From an uncultured Candidatus Saccharibacteria bacterium (GTDB lineage: Bacteria; Patescibacteriota; Minisyncoccia; Phycocordibacterales; UBA2100), in NCBI GenBank assembly GCA_964434285.1, contig CAYSUJ010000001.1, positions 304,564-368,563 of the forward strand: a stretch of DNA of 64,000 nucleotides, written 5' to 3'. Positions within the stretch are counted from its first letter, which is position 1. The number at the start of each line of letters is the position of its first letter. Position numbers and translations under genes: made by a program. Of the stretch, positions 2,215-30,130 are shown in pieces. The notes below the pieces were generated by a model. It did not search any database and was not told the origin of the DNA. It worked only from the letters and a program-made list of their open reading frames with translations.

Positions 2215-2230
2215 GGCTACGCGCGAAAAA

Positions 2231-2260
2231 AGAACGACCCGGACAACCGGGTCGTTTTAG
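2231..2260. terminator. bidirectional intrinsic terminator between the 1933-2214 ORF and rpoD
   Basis: gaacgacccgg-acaa-ccgggtcgtt stem-loop, A-run on the left and ttag/T-rich on the right; it overlaps the rpoD stop. Confidence 0.5.
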
Positions 2261-3498
2261 TATGATTTAAGCTGTTTAGCACGCTCATGAAAACGAATGC
2301 GCTCAAGCGCCTTCGCCTCAATCTGTCGAATGCGCTCACGGGTGACGCCGAATTCGCGCCCCACTTCTTCTAGTGTGAAGCAGATGCCCTCGTCGGTGAG
2401 ACCATTGCGCATTTCAAGAATCTTGCGCTCTTTGGGAGAGAGTTCGTCTAGGATCGCGCCCATTTGTTCGGAAAGAATGCGGCGTGAGGCGTCTTGATCC
2501 GGGCTTGAGATGGTTTCGTCGGCAATGAATGAGCCAAGGGTTGAACGCTCGTCGTCATCATCACCAACAGGGCTTTCAAGCGAAACGGTATCTTGGTTGA
2601 TCTTCTGAATCGTGTAAATCTTATCTACCTCCATACCCATTTCTGAAGCGATCTCTTCTGGGAGCGGATCGCGGCCGAGGTGCTGCGAAAGCTCGCGCAC
2701 CTTCTGCTTGTATTTTGCGATGGTTTCCACCATGTGCACCGGAATGCGGATGGTGCGGCTCTGATCAGCGAGCGCACGTGTAATCGCCTGGCGAATCCAC
2801 CAGGTAGCATAGGTTGAGAATTTAAAGCCCTTGGAGTGATCGAATTTGTCGACCGCCTTAAAGAGCCCGAGATTCCCCTCCTGAATGAGGTCGAGGAGGG
2901 TGAGATCGGGGCTGCGGTTTACGTATTTCTTCGCGATAGAAACCACGAGGCGGAGGTTGGAACGCGCAAGGATCGAGCGCGCCTCTTCGTCGCCATCGAG
3001 GATGCGCTGCGCAAGTTCACGCTCCATCGCGGCGTTCAAAAGCGGATACTGACCAATCTCACGCAGATACATCTGCACAGAGTCGTAGCTTGAATCCGAG
3101 CGGCGATGCTGCAGCTTCTTCTTCTCCAAGACTTCCGTCGCAGAGGTGTCCTCAAGCATGTTGCCACCTTCAAGGACGTCGATGCCGGCAGTGCCAAAGC
3201 GCTCATACATCTCTTCAAGAAGAAGCACATTGTCTTCGATGTGCGGAAACTCGCGCAGAATCTCGTCGTAAGTGACATAGCCGCGCTCGCGGCCAAGCGT
3301 GATAAGCCCCTGCATCTTCTGCTCATCTTTTGCGCCTCCGCGCGTAAGCGGCTTCACGTTTTTTGGAGCTGGCTTTTTCGCGCTGCGCGCCGCCGCCTGT
3401 GGCTTCACCTTTTTTGCCACCTTCTTTTTCGGTGCACGAGAAGCTTTGGGCTTTGCCTTCTTCACAGACTTCTTGACTTTTGTGCGCTTTTTTGCCAT
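2257..3498 (-). CDS. rpoD: RNA polymerase sigma-70 factor RpoD with a Lys-rich N-terminal tail
   Basis: Regions 2-4 are recognisable: [56 protein letters not shown]. The N-terminal 60 aa are K/A/P-rich. Confidence 0.9.
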
Positions 3499-3559
3499 GA
3501 GTTAAAAAATATGCAACAGCGACACCGCTGCCTATTCGCAGCGGTTACGTGGTGCTATT

Positions 3560-9513: not shown

Positions 9514-12500
9514 TTATGCGTCGTTATTCTCGCTTTTAAATTCCAAGTCGATGCCAAGCCCTCGCAGGTGTCGAACCAAGACGTTGAAGGTGGCTGGTGT
9601 GTTTGATTCTTTAATGCGCTCACCGGAAACGATGGCGTCGAATGCAGCGGAGCGTCCGAGGATATCGTCAGACTTATAGGTGAGAATTTCGCGAAGTGAG
9701 TGAGCGGCACCGTAGCCGAGGAACGCCCACACTTCCATTTCTCCAACGCGCTGACCACCGTTCTGCGCCTTACCGCCGAGTGGCTGCTGTGTGGTGAGGC
9801 TGTAGGGACCAATAGAGCGCATGTGGATCTTGTCTTCCACCATGTGGTGCAGCTTGAGCATGTACATCACACCGACCGAAACTGGTTGCGCAAACGCTTC
9901 GCCAGTTCGTCCGTCGAAGAGCACGCGCTTGCCGTCATCGCGGAAGCCTGCCTCCTTGAGTTCTGCCTTAATTTCATCTTCGGTTGCGCCTGCGAACGAT
10001 GGCACCACTGCCTGATAACCAAGCTCGGTTGCCGCGAGTCCCAAGTGAAGCTCGAGAATCTGTCCCAGGTTCATACGACTCGGCACGCCAAGCGGCGTGA
10101 GAATGATGTCGACCGGATTCCCTTCTGCGTCGAATGGCATATCTTCTTCAGGAAGCACGCGTGAGATGACACCCTTGTTACCGTGTCGCCCAGCGAGCTT
10201 ATCGCCGACAGACACAGTGCGGAGCTGTGCTACTTCCACGTGCACACGCTTAATGACACCACTCTCGAGAGAATCGCCGTTTTCGCGTGAGAATACTTTG
10301 ACCGAAATGACGCGACCGCGCTTTCCGCCCTCCATGCGCATTGAGGTGTCCTTCACGTCCTTTGCCTTCTCTCCGAAGATCGCGTGGAGAAGTCGCTCTT
10401 CTGGCGTGAGCTGCGTTTCCCCCTTCGGCGTTACTTTGCCGACGAGAATATCACCTGTTCGCACCTCTGCACCAATGCGGATAATGCCTTCTTCGTCGAG
10501 GTTTCTAAGCTTGAATTCAGAGACGTTCGGAATGTCGTGCGTTGTCACCTCAGGCCCAAGCTTGGTGTCACGCACCACACAGACGAACTCTTCCATATGA
10601 ATGGAAGTAAAGCGCGCTTCTTTTGCGAGCTTTTCAGAGATGATGATTGCGTCTTCGAAGTTCGCACCGGACCATGGAAGAAATGCGACACGCACGTTTT
10701 GTCCGATCGCAAGGTGACCGCGGTCGGATGTTGCAGAGTCGGCAAGCACGCTTCCCTTCTTCACCTTATCGCCCACAGAAACGGAAGGGCGCTGATGGAA
10801 GCACGTAAAGCCGTTTGTTCGAGAGAAATTAATGAGGTTATATTCCTTTGATTTTCCGTCTGCGTTCTTGACCTTGATTGTCTTTGCATCGACGGCAATC
10901 ACTTCTCCCGCTTCTTCAACAAGGAGCATACGCCCCGAATCGCGCGCAGCACTCTCTTCAATACCCGTTGCCACAACCGGCGCATCAGGAATGACGAGCG
11001 GCACCGCTTGCTTCTGCATGTTTGAACCCATGAGTGCGCGGTTTGCGTCGTCGTTTTCGACGAACGGAATGAGAGATGTTGCGACTGAGAACGGCTGATT
11101 CGTTGCGATTTCCATCAAATCCACGTCAGCACGCGCGACGATTGTTGGCTCGCCTTCTTTGCGCACCTCGACGACACTCGGAATGATCTTACCGTCTTCA
11201 TCGACGGGTGTCGCCGCGTGGGCGATCGCATGCATCTCTTCCTCAAGAGCATTCATATACACCACCTCTTTTGTCACCTTTCCTTTCTCCACTTTTGCAT
11301 ACGGAGTTTCGATGATGCCGAATTCGTTTGGGCGAGCATAGAGTGCCATGTGAAGCACGAGGCCGATGTTCTTACCTTCCGGGGTATGGATCGGACACAC
11401 GCGACCGTAGTGTGATGCGTGCACGTCGCGCACTTCAAGACCTGCGCGCTCAGAAACGAGTCCGCCGCGGCCGAGTGTCGAGAGCGTGCGGAGGTGTTCG
11501 ATCTCATCAAGCGAGTTGTACTGCTGCATAAGCTGGGAGAGCTGATCGGTCGTGAAGAACTCGCGAATCGCAGCCTGGAAAGGGCGCGGATTCACAAAGT
11601 TCACCGGGAGCGATGTCTCTGCTTCAACCATGGCCATACGATCCTGGATGTTACGCTTCATGCGCGAGAGGCCGATGCGCATGCGCTGTTCGAGCAGTTC
11701 ACCCACAAAACGAACGCGACGGAAGCCGAGGTGATCAATGTCATCCGGTTCTGCCTTTGGATCGTTATTCGATTGTGCGATGAGGGTGATGATGCGCGCG
11801 ATATCGTCGACAGAAAGCGTCGAGCGTGCGAGATCTTTCTCCGATGTCGGAAGACCGAAGCGTCGATTGAAGTGGAAGCGACCGACTTTTGAGAGGTCGT
11901 AGCGCTCTTCTGAAAGAAGTGAGGCAACGTGGTCGACCGCCGTATCTGCCGTTGCAATATCACCATCACGAAGGCGTCGGTAAATCTCCACTGCCGCCTC
12001 TGCGCTTGTCTTTGCGGTATCAACGGCAAGCGTTGCACGTACCGCAGCAAGGGCGTTTTCATCGCGGAAGTGCGTGAGAATCTGCGCATCGGTCGATGCG
12101 CCCAAGACGCGAAGGAGCGAGGTCACCGGGAAACGGCGCTTGCGATCCACTTTCACGTAAATGGCGTTATCCGCATCAGACTCGATCTCGATCCACACGC
12201 CACGAGACGGGATAATCTTCGCGGCAAAATAATTCACACCCTTCACGAGAACCGTCTCGAAGAAAACACCGTAGGAACGCGCAAGTTGTGGCACGACGAT
12301 ACGCTCAACGCCGTTGATGATGAAGGTCCCGTGCTTGGTCATCCACGGAAAATCTGCAATGAAGATCTCCTGGCTCTTCTCTGAACCCGTCGTCTTATTT
12401 TTAAGCGTCGCAGTCAACGAAAGTGGCGCTTCGTAGGTGCGCATCATGCGCTTTGCATATTCCTCATCGAATCGCACGGGGCCAAACGTGAAATCAGACA

Positions 12501-25555: not shown

Positions 25556-26158
25556 TCAAGCGTAGGCTGTCAAGAACGTTTTGCGGTGTATGAGGGGTAG
25601 TAGGCCATGCTGTCGGATAGCCAGCGTGTGGGCAGCAGTGCCATATCCCTTATGCTGCGCGAAGCCGTATCGGTTATGCGCCTCGGAGAGCTCCTCCATA
25701 TGCATGTCGCGCGTCACCTTCGCAATCATCGAAGCGAACGATATGGCGGGAATCGTCTCGTCGCCGCGGACGAATGATTCCTGCTCCCACTCCGATGAAA
25801 CTGAAAGCCCCGCGTCCAAGAGCACCTTCACACGCGCGGGACCAATACCCAGCCGCTGCACCGCTATCGCCGCAGCCTCGCGCGCCGCGTTCGCGATACC
25901 AATCATATCGATGACTTCTGCCTCGACGAGTGCATGCGCGTGGCGCAAGCGCCCATGATTCACTATGGCGCTATACAACACCTGTCGCTGTTGCGCAGAA
26001 AGTTGTTTTGAATCGCGAAGTTTGGGCACGCCGCGCTTGGTGATAAGTGCGAACACTTCACACCAGTCGAAATCTGCTGGATAGAGAACGGCACCGACAC
26101 ACACAGGACCGGCGAGTGCACCCCGCCCAGCCTCATCAACGCCGATGTACCACTGCAC
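25556..26158 (-). CDS. rnhB: ribonuclease HII. The ORF track extends to a TTG at 26206; the likely start is nearer VQWYIGVDEAGRG
   Basis: IGVDEAGRGALAGPV active-site motif; RNase H fold length. Confidence 0.85.
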   Translation of the reverse strand: MQWYIGVDEAGRGALAGPVCVGAVLYPADFDWCEVFALITKRGVPKLRDSKQLSAQQRQVLYSAIVNHGRLRHAHALVEAEVIDMIGIANAAREAAAIAVQRLGIGPARVKVLLDAGLSVSSEWEQESFVRGDETIPAISFASMIAKVTRDMHMEELSEAHNRYGFAQHKGYGTAAHTLAIRQHGLLPLIHRKTFLTAYA

Positions 26159-26205
26159 CTCCCAACAATAGCAACGGGAAGCACCCCATGACTGAGAAAT
26201 CCCCA

Positions 26206-26921
26206 ACCATGTAGGACACGCCGTGTCCTACATTTCGATCCTTATACTCTCCTCTGTAAGTGAAGGCGTATTGATCAGGGCTGCAATTTCGATGCGTTGG
26301 TTTTTTGCGCTCCCTAGGAGCGCTTTTAGAACACGATTATCGATGACTGAAGGGAAATTTCTCTCACCCATATAATCAAGATAACTACTCCATCGATACT
26401 CATGGAGGTACGCAAGAGCATCCGACACCTTTTTTACATTTCCCTGTCTCCATTCGGGCATCGAAAAATCCAGTGGGTTAAGGTGTATGTAGTATGGTAT
26501 GTAGTTGAAATGCGCATCGCGCTGAAGGTGTATTTTTTTAAAGACACCCTGCCAAAGCACGCCACTACGCGAATACTTTTCGTTGAAATATTTTGCATAT
26601 CCCATGCCTAACTTTTGAGCAAAACGAGAAACATACACCGCATCGTCATCGACCGGAGAAAGAAGGAGGTGGTAATGATTGTCCATCAGACACCATGCAT
26701 GAATGTGCACGAGGCGTTTATGATTTCTATCTCTACGCTCTCGCACATGTCTATGGGCCACTATTTTCTGATTATTAAGTTCATACAAGTCGCTTACGAA
26801 TCGAGCCCGATCCCCATCGTCGAGCACAATTTTTCTTTTTTCTACGCCCCTGTTGAGAATGTGATAAAAATCCATGATTCACTTAACTGTACCATGTAGG
26901 ACACGCCGTGTCCTACATGGT
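26206..26921. mobile_element. IS200/IS605-like (RAYT-like) unit: a Y1 HUH transposase gene bounded by identical perfect palindromes
   Basis: accatgtaggacacgccgtgtcctacat at 26206-26233 and the same sequence extended to a 31-bp palindrome at 26891-26921. The tnp stop codon lies inside the left palindrome. Confidence 0.7.
26228..26875 (-). CDS. Y1 (HUH) tyrosine transposase, IS200/RAYT family
   Basis: FYHILNRG N-terminus, HUH motif HAWCLMDNHYHLLL, and a downstream Tyr-containing YRWSSY region; 215 aa. Confidence 0.75.
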   Translation of the reverse strand: MDFYHILNRGVEKRKIVLDDGDRARFVSDLYELNNQKIVAHRHVRERRDRNHKRLVHIHAWCLMDNHYHLLLSPVDDDAVYVSRFAQKLGMGYAKYFNEKYSRSGVLWQGVFKKIHLQRDAHFNYIPYYIHLNPLDFSMPEWRQGNVKKVSDALAYLHEYRWSSYLDYMGERNFPSVIDNRVLKALLGSAKNQRIEIAALINTPSLTEESIRIEM

Positions 26922-26953
26922 CGAGGCAAGCGCCGCCTTATATAATCCTCGAC

Positions 26954-29900
26954 ATGGCCATGCAACGCTTTGCCCATCTGCATACCCATTCTCATTACTC
27001 CCTCCTCGAGGCGCTCCCCAAAATCGAAGAACTCATAGAGGCCGCAAAAGCAGACGGGCATGAGGCGCTCGCACTGACGGACGCCGGCAACATGTACGGC
27101 GCGATCGAGTTTTATAAAGCAGCAAAGGCGGCGGGGATAAAGCCTATTATTGGTGTCGATTTCTTCGTCGCACCGCGCACACGACACGATAAAGAACATC
27201 GTGTCGATGATCGCCCTTCCAGACTAGTACTTCTTGCAAAGGATATCACTGGCTATAAAAATCTCATCGAACTCGTCTCGATATCGTTCCTTGAGGGCTT
27301 CCACTTCCGCCCGCGGATCGATCGTGAACTCGTGGTCGCGCATCAGAAGGGACTCATCGCCATCCTTCCCTCGATTGAAGGCGAGCACGCAATTCATCTG
27401 AGTGACACCATGCCCGATAAAGCGGACGAATCGCTCGCATTTTACGCAAAGACGTTTGGCTCCGATCTCTTTCTCGAAATTTCGCATCACCCCGAGATCG
27501 AGCGGCACATGGATATGCAGAAAAAAGCGATCGATATGGCCCATGCAAAACAGATTCCACTGATCGCTGCGCAGGACGTCTACTATCTCAAGAAAGAGGA
27601 CGCCCTCGCACGAGAAATGGTGGACAAAATAAGAACGGGCGGCACGCTCGATCGAGAATTTGGTGCAAGTGTAGGCGATTTTTCTTTTATAACGGCCGCA
27701 GACGCCACAAAATTCTTTAAAGACACACCTCAAGCACTCGAAAACATTGGGCGCATAATTGACGCATGCAACATCGAGCTCGATCTCGGCAAATGGGTTT
27801 TCCCGGCAATCAAAGTCGAGAACGGTTCGTATGACGACGCGCTCCGAGAGCTCGCCTACAGGGGTTTTGTATCTCGCGGGTTGGAAAAAACACCCGAACT
27901 CCGCGAGCGCCTCGATTACGAGCTCTCTGTCATCGCAAAAAAGGGTTACTCTCCCTACTTTCTTGTCGTATCCGACCTTCTCCACTTTGCACATGAGCAC
28001 GGCATCCTCACGAACATCCGCGGCTCTGTCGCGGGTTCGCTCGTGACATATCTTTCCCACATCACAAACGTGAATCCGATAGAATACGGACTCCCCTTTG
28101 AGCGATTCCTGAATCCCGAGCGCCCCTCAGCGCCGGACATCGACATGGACTACGCCGATAATCGACGTGACGAGATGATCGCCTACGCGCGGCAGAAATA
28201 CGGCGAAGATCACGTGGCGCAAATAGGCACCTTCGGCACCATGATGGCACGCGCGGCCGTGCGCGACGTCTCACGCGCACTCGGCCACAGCTACGGCACC
28301 GGTGATCGCATCGCGAAGATGATCCCCTTCGGCAAACAGGGATTCCCCGTCACAATCGACAGCTCGCTCCAAGAAGTGCCCGAACTCGCGGAGGCCTACA
28401 AAAAAGACCCGGATGCCCGCGAGATTCTCGATATGGCACGCAAGGTGGAAGGCAACGCGAGGCACGTGGGTGTACACGCAGCGGGCGTCGTGATTGCACC
28501 AACACCCGTCACCGATTTCGTTCCCATTCAGCTCGACCCAAAGGGCGGCAAAATCATCACGCAGTACGACATGCATGCGGTGGAAGACGCGGGCCTCTTG
28601 AAGTTCGACTTCCTCGGACTCACCAACCTCTCCACACTCGCCGACGCGCGCGACCGCGTAAAGACGCGCCGCGGTATTGAAATAGATTTCGACAACCTGC
28701 CACTCGACGACCAAAAAACCTTCGATATGCTCTCCCGAGGCGAAACGCTCGGCGTCTTCCAGCTCGCGGGCGGCGGCATGACAAACCATCTGGTGGAACT
28801 CAAACCCTCAGTGATTCACGACATCAACGCTATGGTCGCCCTCTATCGCCCCGGTCCAATGAACTTCATTCCGCAATACATCGAACGCAAACACGACCCG
28901 CGGAAAGTCGTGTATCTCGACCCGCGCCTCGAACCGATTCTCAAGAAATCATACGGCGTCATCACCTATCAGGACGACGTTCTTCAGATCGCGATCCAGT
29001 TCGCTGGCTACTCATGGCTCGAGGCCGACAAGTTCCGCAAAGCGATGGGTAAAAAGATTCCGGCGGAAATGGCCGCGCAGAAAGAAAAGTTTACGAAAGG
29101 CTGTCTTGATATCGGCAAGATGCGCCCAGACGTGGTTCAGAAGCTCTGGGAGCAGATCGAAACCTTCGCTGCCTATGGCTTCAACAAAGCGCACGCGGCA
29201 TCCTATGGCCGCCTCGCCTATGAGACCGCCTATATGAAAGCGAATTACCCAGTGGATTACATGGCAGCAGTGCTCACCTCAGACGCAGGTGACGTCGACA
29301 AAATCGCGGAAGTCGTAGCCGAGTGCAAACGTATGAAGCTCACCATCCTCCCACCCCTCGTGAATGAAAGCCGCGGCACCTTCACGGTGATGGATGATAC
29401 AACAATCCGTTTTGGTTTGTACTCAATCAAGAATTTCGGCACGGGCATCGCAGATTCCATCATTGCCGAGCGCGAAAGCGTCGGGAAGTTCACCTCGATA
29501 GCTGATTTCCTCGCCCGCATTGGTGACAAAAATCTCAATAAGAAATCATTAGAAGCCCTCATCATGTGCGGCGCGCTCGACGACCTCGCACCCGAAGGAG
29601 GCGGGCGCAACACGCTCCTGAAAAATATCGAACTTCTCCTCACCTATCGCAAAGAAAGCCAAAGTGCACCCGTCGGGCAGGATTCACTCTTCGGCGCTTC
29701 GGTATCAAGTGCGCGCGCGGACCTCAGGCTTCCTGAGGAACAGCCAGCGACACAAGAAGTAAAATTAAAGTGGGAAAAGGAACTCCTCGGGTTCTATGTT
29801 TCTGGCCACCCGCTCGACAAGCACGCAGCCGTGCTCGCTCGCCAGAAAATGAACATCCCGCAGATGAAGGAGCGCTTCCCGCGAGGTGTGGAAACAGTCA

Positions 29901-30130
29901 TCGGCGGCATGTTGGAATCAACCCAACCCATTCTTACGAAAAAAGGCGAGCGCATGCTCTTCGGTCGCCTGGCTGATCAAGCAGGCTCGACAGAAATCGT
30001 CGTTTTCCCGAGCACACTTTCAGAAGCACCGACCATGTTCAACCCCGGCGCCTGTCTTATGCTCAAAGGAAAATTCAACGATCGAAACGGCGAGGCGAGT
30101 TTTGTAGTGGAAAAGGCGAAGGCGCTGTAA
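26954..30130 (+). CDS. dnaE: DNA polymerase III alpha subunit (short form, 1058 aa)
   Basis: PHP domain HLHTHSHYSLLEAL at the N-terminus, polymerase core and a C-terminal OB region. Confidence 0.9.
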   Translation: MAMQRFAHLHTHSHYSLLEALPKIEELIEAAKADGHEALALTDAGNMYGAIEFYKAAKAAGIKPIIGVDFFVAPRTRHDKEHRVDDRPSRLVLLAKDITGYKNLIELVSISFLEGFHFRPRIDRELVVAHQKGLIAILPSIEGEHAIHLSDTMPDKADESLAFYAKTFGSDLFLEISHHPEIERHMDMQKKAIDMAHAKQIPLIAAQDVYYLKKEDALAREMVDKIRTGGTLDREFGASVGDFSFITAADATKFFKDTPQALENIGRIIDACNIELDLGKWVFPAIKVENGSYDDALRELAYRGFVSRGLEKTPELRERLDYELSVIAKKGYSPYFLVVSDLLHFAHEHGILTNIRGSVAGSLVTYLSHITNVNPIEYGLPFERFLNPERPSAPDIDMDYADNRRDEMIAYARQKYGEDHVAQIGTFGTMMARAAVRDVSRALGHSYGTGDRIAKMIPFGKQGFPVTIDSSLQEVPELAEAYKKDPDAREILDMARKVEGNARHVGVHAAGVVIAPTPVTDFVPIQLDPKGGKIITQYDMHAVEDAGLLKFDFLGLTNLSTLADARDRVKTRRGIEIDFDNLPLDDQKTFDMLSRGETLGVFQLAGGGMTNHLVELKPSVIHDINAMVALYRPGPMNFIPQYIERKHDPRKVVYLDPRLEPILKKSYGVITYQDDVLQIAIQFAGYSWLEADKFRKAMGKKIPAEMAAQKEKFTKGCLDIGKMRPDVVQKLWEQIETFAAYGFNKAHAASYGRLAYETAYMKANYPVDYMAAVLTSDAGDVDKIAEVVAECKRMKLTILPPLVNESRGTFTVMDDTTIRFGLYSIKNFGTGIADSIIAERESVGKFTSIADFLARIGDKNLNKKSLEALIMCGALDDLAPEGGGRNTLLKNIELLLTYRKESQSAPVGQDSLFGASVSSARADLRLPEEQPATQEVKLKWEKELLGFYVSGHPLDKHAAVLARQKMNIPQMKERFPRGVETVIGGMLESTQPILTKKGERMLFGRLADQAGSTEIVVFPSTLSEAPTMFNPGACLMLKGKFNDRNGEASFVVEKAKAL

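Follow-up and report, generated by a model that had tools for sequence, protein, structure and literature searches.

A Y1/HUH transposase gene bracketed by matched palindromes as a putative long-term resident of Patescibacteria genomes

The subject of this study is a single gene for a Y1/HUH transposase-like protein (hereafter Y1) and the two palindromes that bracket it in a Patescibacteria genome of Kaiserbacteria-like type. The stretch analyzed, referred to as the window, is 64 kb long and is numbered from its first letter as position 1. The Y1 gene lies on the minus strand (26228..26875), encodes a protein of 215 amino acids (aa) containing HAWCLMDNHYHLLL and is present in one copy in the window. 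On both sides it is accompanied by the 28-nt sequence ACCATGTAGGACACGCCGTGTCCTACAT, which has exactly two occurrences in the window, at 26206-26233 and 26891-26918; a match to this pair was obtained in 0/100 shuffled sequences. The upstream copy, proximal to the 5′ end of the gene, extends to a perfect palindrome of 31 nt (26891..26921; ACCATGTAGGACACG-C-CGTGTCCTACATGGT, 15+1+15), which lies 15 nt ahead of the Y1 start codon and reaches with its distal end the -35 position of a putative dnaE promoter. The downstream copy (26206..26233) contains a perfect palindrome of 25 nt at 26209-26233 (ATGTAGGACACG-C-CGTGTCCTACAT, 12+1+12), and the ACC beside it at 26206-26208 is also present in the upstream copy. 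The end of the gene is encoded within this downstream palindrome, the last codon ATG (Met215) being the reverse complement of 26231-26233 and the stop codon TAG that of 26228-26230. This arrangement agrees with the first-pass annotation of the locus, which had described a 215-aa HUH protein between identical 28-nt copies, the right one extending to a 31-nt perfect palindrome and the left one encoding the last Met together with the stop.

Folded as single-stranded DNA, the 31-nt palindrome is predicted to form a stem of 14 bp closed by a loop of 3 nt (free energy -14.9 kcal/mol) and the 25-nt palindrome a stem of 11 bp, likewise closed by 3 nt (about -10 kcal/mol), with folding z-scores of -5 to -7 over both hairpins and -6 to -7 for the longer one. 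The window palindrome, which is also written as ATGTAGGACACGSCGTGTCCTACAT and ATGTAGGACACGNCGTGTCCTACAT, has no third copy in the 64 kb, even if 3 mismatches, or 1 mismatch in a 13-nt core, are allowed; this mismatch-tolerant search thus bears out the earlier statement that no further copy was seen. Neither a second Y1 gene in the window nor an internal palindrome copy within the Y1 gene was found, and the remaining palindromes of the window are all unique in sequence. Outside the element, rnhB (RNase HII; 25556..26158, minus strand) follows downstream, and dnaE (DNA polymerase III alpha; 26954..30130, plus strand) is the divergent upstream neighbour. The identities of both neighbours are taken from the Pfam labels of an identical contig out of a public run (L001).

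The protein falls into the HUH/Y1 superfamily, with a marginal match to Pfam Y1_Tnp (PF01797; 24.2 bits at a cutoff of 23), the HUH motif and a single tyrosine on the following helix. Y1_Tnp was the only Pfam domain at E <= 1, where neither a helix-turn-helix nor a Bac_DnaA_C domain was detected. Within NCBIfam, REP_Tyr_transpos (NF047646) was the sole match (E 1.9e-10), at 40.8 bits compared to a curated cutoff of 80. A search of the PDB by sequence gave no meaningful match, and a fold search was needed. For this, an AlphaFold model was built from 38 homologues (predicted local distance difference test, pLDDT, 85.7); its best match among solved folds was 4ER8, the E. coli RAYT with a hairpin of the repetitive extragenic palindromic (REP) type, followed by the TnpA proteins of IS608 and ISDra2 (matches include 4ER8, 2A6O and 2XM3). 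The wider superfamily is large, with 12,338 clusters at 50% identity matching at E <= 1e-3 and 111 at E <= 1e-30. The close clade (>50% identity) comprises thousands of sequences which, where names are given, are assigned to Patescibacteria, Kaiserbacteria or Paceibacterota.

Across the 38 aligned members, the motifs N66-H-Y-H69, W108-Q109, Y129-IHLNP and W162-S-S164 are invariant or nearly so, including the individual residues H67-Y68-H69, Y129, N133, P134 and W162-S163-S164; HUH, Y129, N133 and W162-S163-S164 are unchanged in 38/38. Y129 is located on helix 121-132 of the model. In class 2 of these enzymes the catalytic motif is 'Y---NP', the N being the third metal ligand (N119 in E. coli; PMC6006769). 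Since Y129-x3-N133-P134 corresponds to this motif, Y129 is the predicted catalytic tyrosine and N133 the predicted third metal ligand. The first-pass annotation had sought the catalytic Tyr in the YRWSSY segment, to be checked for conservation; judged by the alignment, this segment is the conserved 'SS' tail motif and not the site of the catalytic Tyr, which is the tyrosine of YIHLNP, retained throughout. After the SS domain only a tail of ~28 aa remains, modelled as short helices. Based on the conserved catalytic residues, we predict HUH nuclease activity, that is hairpin binding, cleavage and strand transfer.

For the finer classification, the motifs NH[YF]H, W[EQ], Y[IV]HLNP and the SS tail are listed for TnpA-Y1 subclass 2.1 (PMC6006769, Table 1), which equals Group 1 RAYT (PMC5581495) and is largely TIRYT (PMC3733652). 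The window protein has all of them (NHYH, WQ, YIHLNP, SS) at a length just above 200 aa, and is on these grounds a member of subclass 2.1 / Group 1 RAYT / TIRYT, an assignment made by motif comparison and not by a subclass hidden Markov model (HMM). The distal C-terminal helix-turn-helix of subclass 2.1 (Bac_DnaA_C, HTH_23, HTH_28) was not found by Pfam at E <= 1. The tyrosine motif of IS200 (subclass 1.1), Y---Q or Y[IV]ENQ (PMC6006769), is replaced in the window protein by Y129-I-H-L-N133-P134.

The divergent dnaE, Y1 and rnhB stand in the same order in every close relative recovered (L004, L006-L008, L009-L015 and L033), and the rnhB neighbour is retained in L004, L006, L007, L008, L010 and L033. 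Compared to the window, Y1 of the relatives is 68-79% identical, DnaE 71-77%, RnhB 72-87%, NusB 82-85% and ThrS 74-80% (52% for the non-orthologous ThrS of L033). Synonymous sites are saturated (proportion of synonymous differences, pS, 0.62-0.92), and the ratio of nonsynonymous to synonymous substitution rates (dN/dS) is 0.05-0.09 where dS could be estimated. The same junction, a divergence like that of the housekeeping neighbours and the low dN/dS argue against a recent insertion. By these sequence comparisons, the Y1 unit is an old, vertically inherited resident under strong purifying selection, which is the general pattern of RAYTs (PMC5581495). The first-pass annotation had viewed the unit as a mobile insertion between rnhB and dnaE and had proposed to look for an empty junction in related genomes; the same gene, with palindromes of the same kind, occupies this junction in relatives whose Y1, DnaE, RnhB, ThrS and NusB are ~68-87% identical, and Y1 was missing from no close relative recovered. 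Occupancy of the orthologous site in relatives is one half of the outcome that the annotation itself had named as refuting its reading. Its additional suggestion of a solitary, possibly domesticated unit, not a REPIN swarm, pointed in the right direction.

More distant members (52-58% identical) reside in other genomic contexts, namely uvrB-Y1-tgt, uvrC-Y1-..-uvrA, obg-Y1-secA, gap-Y1-giant protein (seen twice) and mreB-Y1-class II aminoacyl-tRNA synthetase gene. These varied contexts suggest that the unit was relocated or re-acquired over long times, yet is stable within sublineages. Plasmid and phage collections contained no close relative, every match being at <=42% identity. In seven distant, non-independent lineages (L016, L017, L018, L022, L041, L042, L043; gene at ~10001-10660), Y1 stands alone on its strand with both neighbours in the opposite orientation, which could be a relic of insertion biased to the lagging-strand template, as in IS200/IS605.

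Matched palindromes were present on both sides of Y1 in 15/15 genes examined (the window and 14 further genes). Across the family, the upstream palindrome lies 10-30 nt ahead of the start codon and the downstream one usually overlaps the stop codon, with TAG, TAA or TGA within the stem; a stop codon in the palindrome was also seen in L004, L009, L010, L016, L018, L041, L042 and L043. The sequence of the palindrome varies among genomes and agrees within each locus. Its arm reads ATGTAGGACACG in the window, ATGTAAGACACG in L009 and L010, ATTTAAGACACG in L004, L006 and L033, ATATAAGACACG in L026, ATCTAGGACACG in L022, AACTAGGACACG in L042, ATGATGGACATC in L043, TTACCGACATC in L017, ACTTAAGTCATC in L018 and ATATAAGTCATC in L041, and a relative on a contig of 1.08 Mb (ERZ25072999 ctg321093) has its own palindrome, TTACYGACATCSGATGTCGGTAR.

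In an alignment of 25 palindrome columns, 97% of the stem cells are Watson-Crick paired and 9/12 stem pairs show double-sided changes, values that were reached by 0/500 shuffles. The core positions G7, C9 and A10 (GACA...TGTC) are invariant. At the foot of the stem, the GTAG of the window and L016 palindromes is paired with CTAC inside the stem, and the corresponding tetranucleotide in relatives is GTAA, TTAA, CTAG, ATAA, GATG or TACC. Arms differ at only 1-2/12 positions between genomes with saturated synonymous sites, indicating that the palindrome is constrained in sequence and not in structure alone. Every arm change is present in both arms of both copies. The centre nucleotide is G, C or T and occurs in either orientation between copies, and the three copies of L016 have the same asymmetric core, GGACACCCGATGTCC, once so oriented and twice as the exact reverse complement. 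Both the flips of the centre nucleotide and the common asymmetric core of L016 point to copying rather than site-by-site selection.

One of the relatives, a Kaiserbacteria contig (L033), carries in addition to the orthologous unit a second Y1 gene between thrS and dnaE (2230-2895, minus strand), whose product is 50% identical to the window protein and belongs to a clade with proteins P0271-P0303. Its palindrome of 25 nt, ATGACGGGTTT-CGT-AAACCCGTCAT, is distinct from the window type, suggesting that each enzyme clade has its own palindrome, as in REPtrons. Downstream, in-gene and upstream copies lie near 2197-2232, 2711-2745 and 2899-2935, respectively. The internal copy is in frame ahead of the HUH motif and encodes MTGLRNPS, and a segment M[TK]G[FL][RV]NPS occupies the same position throughout the paralogue clade, in which over-extended open reading frame (ORF) calls read through the upstream palindrome. 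Many distant representatives of the family (P0122, P0125, P0129, P0136, P0152 and others) match the query in two stretches and have ~30 extra residues in a variable loop near query residues 45-50, where the L033 paralogue has its in-frame palindrome; internal palindrome insertions may be widespread.

Apart from the gene-flanking copies, no extra palindromes were detected in the 12-20-kb flanks of the relatives (~200 kb in total). With zero extra copies in the window and in these flanks, the unit does not form a REPIN swarm. A metagenome scan for TAAGACACGNCGTGTCTTA yielded 18 loci, of which 5 were pairs ~690 nt apart around a Y1 gene and 13 were single. Seven of the singles (L024, L027, L028, L030, L031, L036, L038) are exact 25-nt units of the gene-flanking type, with no Y1 gene within the loci examined (up to 14 kb); in the other six (L023, L025, L029, L034, L037, L039) only a shorter palindrome of 19-21 nt was matched. 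Several of the contigs with solitary copies come from the same samples as contigs bearing pairs.

Some solitary sites recur at the same junction in different genomes. Two are located between the gene for an S21-like protein (rpsU) and ybeY (L024:2629-2653, L036:1647-1671), and three between an NAD-epimerase gene and folD (L025:185-205, L028:5691-5715, L030:8320-8344). The latter overlap the upstream stop codon, and the L025 copy is a 21-nt variant of the GTAAG type. Proteins flanking these common junctions are 60-82% identical (89% for the S21-like protein) and the palindromes are still perfect and of the genome's own type, suggesting that the solitary sites are old too. No empty rpsU-ybeY or epimerase-folD junction was seen among the loci examined, both junctions lying outside the window. 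The solitary copy of L038 is located at the end of an ORF of 398 aa. At L038:5448-5490, at the C-terminus of this ORF, the palindrome contains an exact 18-nt tandem duplication in frame (VNLRHG twice), which looks like replication slippage at a hairpin. Among GTDB representative genomes scanned for GTAGGACACGNCGTGTCCTAC, there was a single match on an unrelated contig, L003 (CAYHOC010000018.1, labelled as a metagenome-assembled genome of Gammaproteobacteria). It places the palindrome core (3172-3194) inside an ORF of 385 aa (2375-3532, minus strand) with no Y1 gene in the 6.6 kb examined, and may reflect coincidence, a copy within a gene or mis-binning of the contig. The genome of the window is evidently absent from this collection.

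Transcription signals at the locus were read directly from the sequence. The 32 nt between the upstream palindrome and dnaE (26922..26953) form a putative divergent control region common to Y1 and dnaE, with TATAAT at 26941-26946, separated by 7 nt from the ATG of dnaE (26954), and the complement TATATAA for Y1. As a consensus promoter scan found nothing above chance at the locus, this placement by eye is tentative. The short distance between TATAAT and the ATG suggests a leaderless or near-leaderless dnaE mRNA. A terminator scan did not call the window palindromes, which have no T tail, and Rfam and tRNA scans returned nothing near the Y1 locus. On the rnhB side, the motif T(G/T)G(G/A)GGAYTTYC is conserved in 6/6 loci with dnaE, Y1 and rnhB (window, L004, L006, L009, L010, L033), up to ~20 nt after the downstream palindrome and ~40-60 nt before rnhB; the window copy is TGGGGATTTCTC (26194-26205, minus strand). 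It may be a promoter or leader element of rnhB or a boundary of the unit. A replication origin was also considered, given the strand switch between Y1 and dnaE and the presence of dnaE and rnhB, and was rejected because there is no turn of the GC skew at the Y1 locus and distant members stand beside unrelated genes.

Taken together, we interpret the locus, with a probability of roughly 0.6, as a domesticated, vertically inherited unit of the REPtron/TIRtron type, consisting of a single-copy Y1 HUH nuclease/ligase for single-stranded DNA and its cognate 25-nt palindrome. Beyond the conservation of residues, the proposed mechanism is modelled on that of E. coli TnpA-REP and of IS608 TnpA (PMC8266576, PMC6006769). 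On single-stranded DNA, such as the lagging-strand template, the palindrome would form a hairpin with a stem of 11-14 bp and a loop of the form GNC, and the enzyme would bind this hairpin sequence-specifically via the invariant GACA/TGTC core. It would then nick the foot of the hairpin via a 5′-phosphotyrosine at Y129 and rejoin the strand. In the long term, palindromes would be copied or replaced, so that the copies of a genome stay identical in flip or flop orientation, and new sites would rarely be seeded, while the Y1 gene itself would not be moved. With the Y1 mRNA enclosed by the two hairpins and the upstream one extending over the putative dnaE promoter region, side effects are likely, and the hairpins may plausibly insulate or autoregulate the Y1 gene. 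A bolder and rather doubtful extension sees a minimal REPtron across the phylum Patescibacteria, in which an essential-like single-copy HUH nuclease with 25-nt palindromes at few fixed junctions, the ends of its own gene among them, serves the host and is not selfish DNA. The system could, for instance, process single-stranded hairpins at replication forks, or it could set the ends of transcripts and insulate neighbouring operons, and the enzyme would keep the palindromes identical.

A number of points weigh against a domesticated nuclease with its cognate palindrome. The TnpA-REP and IS200 enzymes known so far act strand-specifically and rely on bulges, loops or a 5′ GTAG. The perfect palindrome offers almost no strand asymmetry, unlike these substrates. 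Moreover, the innermost pair 12/14 is complementary in 15/15 sequences and cannot be used by a hairpin, so the symmetry fits dyad recognition on duplex DNA at least as well. The window protein misses the curated cutoff of the RAYT model NF047646 (40.8 vs 80 bits), and binding and cleavage by subclass 2.1 enzymes are extrapolated from E. coli TnpA-REP (PMC8266576). Within its 64 kb, the window genome has gene-flanking copies only, and the solitary copies stem from metagenome contigs whose assignment to Y1 genomes relies on sample, palindrome type and similar G+C. Finally, the solitary sites are conserved in position and no present/absent polymorphism was seen, so that nothing points directly to recent mobility.

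In the main rival reading, Y1 would now be mainly a sequence-specific DNA-binding regulator or insulator, acting as a dimer on duplex or cruciform palindromes at the ends of its own gene and at a few junctions, with autoregulation and possibly control of the dnaE promoter. Protein and sites would then co-evolve as a small regulon and cleavage would be beside the point. In favor of a regulator, the symmetry is perfect up to the central base, including pairs impossible in a hairpin, there is no constraint on the centre nucleotide, which can be G, C or T, and the copy number is very low. Solitary and gene-flanking sites are also positionally conserved across deep divergence, and the upstream palindrome, 15 nt from the Y1 ATG, covers the -35 of the putative dnaE promoter. 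A pure binding protein, however, would not need HUH, Y129 and N133, which are invariant in 38/38, and Pfam found no helix-turn-helix domain at E <= 1. The asymmetric core that L016 carries in both orientations points to copying, and the in-frame copy of the paralogue and the palindromes on stop codons resemble insertions, not operators. We regard a role mainly as a regulator as unlikely.

Even less probable is an autonomous, active IS200-like element of ~716 bp that has the palindromes as ends and lies between rnhB and dnaE by chance. Its size, the one-gene layout with a hairpin at each end and the Pfam Y1_Tnp match do resemble IS200; the varied contexts in distant lineages indicate that the unit moved or was re-acquired over long times, and the site that the L033 paralogue occupies between thrS and dnaE carries no unit in the window, L004 or L006. 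However, the window has one copy, no locus contains two near-identical genes, and the two genes of L033 are only 50% identical with different palindromes. The position is shared by relatives despite saturated synonymous divergence, plasmid and phage collections hold no match above 42% identity, the catalytic motif is Y---NP and not the Y---Q of IS200 (PMC6006769), and the two ends match each other as perfect palindromes, where IS200 has imperfect hairpins that differ between left and right. We give hardly any credence to the view that the palindromes are plain terminators or mRNA-stabilising stem-loops, functionally unconnected with the protein, beside a transposase gene that is decayed or of no consequence. 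Stable hairpins that coincide with the 5′ end and the 3′ end of the transcription unit, and that in relatives lie at junctions overlapping stop codons, would fit such a role, but the hairpins lack a T tail and were not called as terminators, and the two copies are identical in sequence, beyond structure. Furthermore, the sequence changes among genomes yet is matched within each genome (15/15 genes), the paralogue carries a palindrome of another type, the Y1 gene is under strong purifying selection, and the other palindromes of the window are all unique. The first-pass annotation had named hairpins acting only as terminators, at a site with no sign of mobility, as the outcome that would speak against its reading; the former does not agree with the missing T tail, the covariation and the match within each genome, and the latter not with the signs of copying, namely solitary copies, flip/flop orientations and the in-frame copy of the paralogue.

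About one bacterial species in four carries domesticated Y1 transposases of the RAYT type. The unit is a new example of this known kind of domesticated element and overturns nothing. Subclass 2.1 is the largest group outside the insertion sequences and has been reported without associated palindromes (PMC6006769); new compared to the literature consulted here are the compact perfect palindromes at every examined subclass 2.1 gene of this Patescibacteria clade. In these streamlined genomes, the clade combines matched, co-evolving palindromes with an extremely low copy number, conserved positions and an often embedded stop codon. It represents a clean natural system for studying how an enzyme recognizes a palindrome without strand asymmetry and how identical dispersed copies are maintained, and a minimal one in which to ask what role RAYT-type enzymes have. 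With respect to annotation, 'transposase' calls of this family in genomes of the candidate phyla radiation (CPR) denote resident genes and not markers of mobile DNA. If the phylum-wide extension were true, Patescibacteria would provide a tractable model of RAYT function with 2 to about 10 sites in a ~1-Mb genome.

Compared to known systems, the element shares with IS200 (subclass 1.1) the HUH/Y1 fold and the format of a ~0.7-kb one-gene unit with a hairpin near each end. It differs by Y---NP in place of Y---Q, a C-terminal extension of 80 aa and the lack of a tnpB in the window unit. Whereas IS200/IS605 elements have many near-identical copies at variable sites, the window unit is single-copy in 64 kb and syntenic, at the same site in relatives. 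IS200 ends are distinct imperfect hairpins with guide and cleavage tetranucleotides; those of the window are identical perfect palindromes. With the Y---Q motif, the multi-copy state and the distinct ends all lacking, it is not an IS200. The first-pass annotation had assigned the protein to the IS200/RAYT family and recognized a hallmark geometry of IS200/IS605 or RAYT elements. Of this, the superfamily (Y1_Tnp at 24.2 bits, 4ER8 fold) and a REPtron-like geometry hold, while IS200, in view of the identical perfect ends and Y---NP, and a canonical RAYT do not.

The REPtron of E. coli yafM (4ER8, PMC8266576) is the best structural match and has the Y---NP motif in common. As here, a REPtron is a single-copy, vertically inherited gene bracketed by cognate, co-evolving palindromes, and each paralogue has its own palindrome family. 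Flanking cognate palindromes were found at the window gene and at 14 further genes, and with its GTAG...CTAC the window palindrome resembles the 'double foot' REPs described for subclass 2.4 (PMC6006769). In-frame REPs are known from tnpA-REP genes of this subclass (PMC6006769), and the paralogue clade of L033 and P0271-P0303 likewise has an in-frame copy of its own palindrome inside the ORF; there, however, the in-frame copy is fixed across the clade, and the window gene has no internal copy. In place of GT[AG]G, relatives have GTAA, TTAA, CTAG or ATAA, and, unlike in REPtrons, the palindromes have neither bulges nor an unpaired 5′ tag. Groups 2 and 3 RAYT reach tens to hundreds of copies per genome, compared to 0 extra copies in 64 kb and in ~200 kb of relatives' flanks. 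Given the missed HMM cutoff (40.8 bits vs 80), the absence of a swarm and the apparent lack of a conserved GTAG, the unit is not a canonical RAYT.

A literature search for Patescibacteria or CPR together with RAYT, IS200 or palindrome returned nothing relevant, and the host sets this unit apart from the TIRtrons and subclass 2.1 genes described so far. Quentin et al. found no REP-like structures beside subclass 2.1 genes (PMC6006769), whereas 15/15 genes examined here have palindromes. The C-terminal Bac_DnaA_C/HTH domain of this subclass is not detectable, and the protein has 215 aa compared to a median of 238. Instead of long terminal inverted repeats (TIRs), the repeats are compact perfect palindromes (12+1+12), and TAGGACAC matches the TIR motif GGGGWSAS at 6/8 positions, although the invariant GGACAC / GACA core of the window family does resemble it (PMC3733652). 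The signature motifs and the length just above 200 aa are nevertheless common to the window protein and TIRtron/TIRYT, subclass 2.1 and Group 1 RAYT, as are a low copy number and a housekeeping-like inheritance. In some of the TIRtrons described, the matching repeats are self-complementary, overlap one end of the gene and show rare or low-copy dispersal (PMC3733652), and the window unit is alike, with its bracketing repeats 15 nt from the start codon and overlapping the stop codon.

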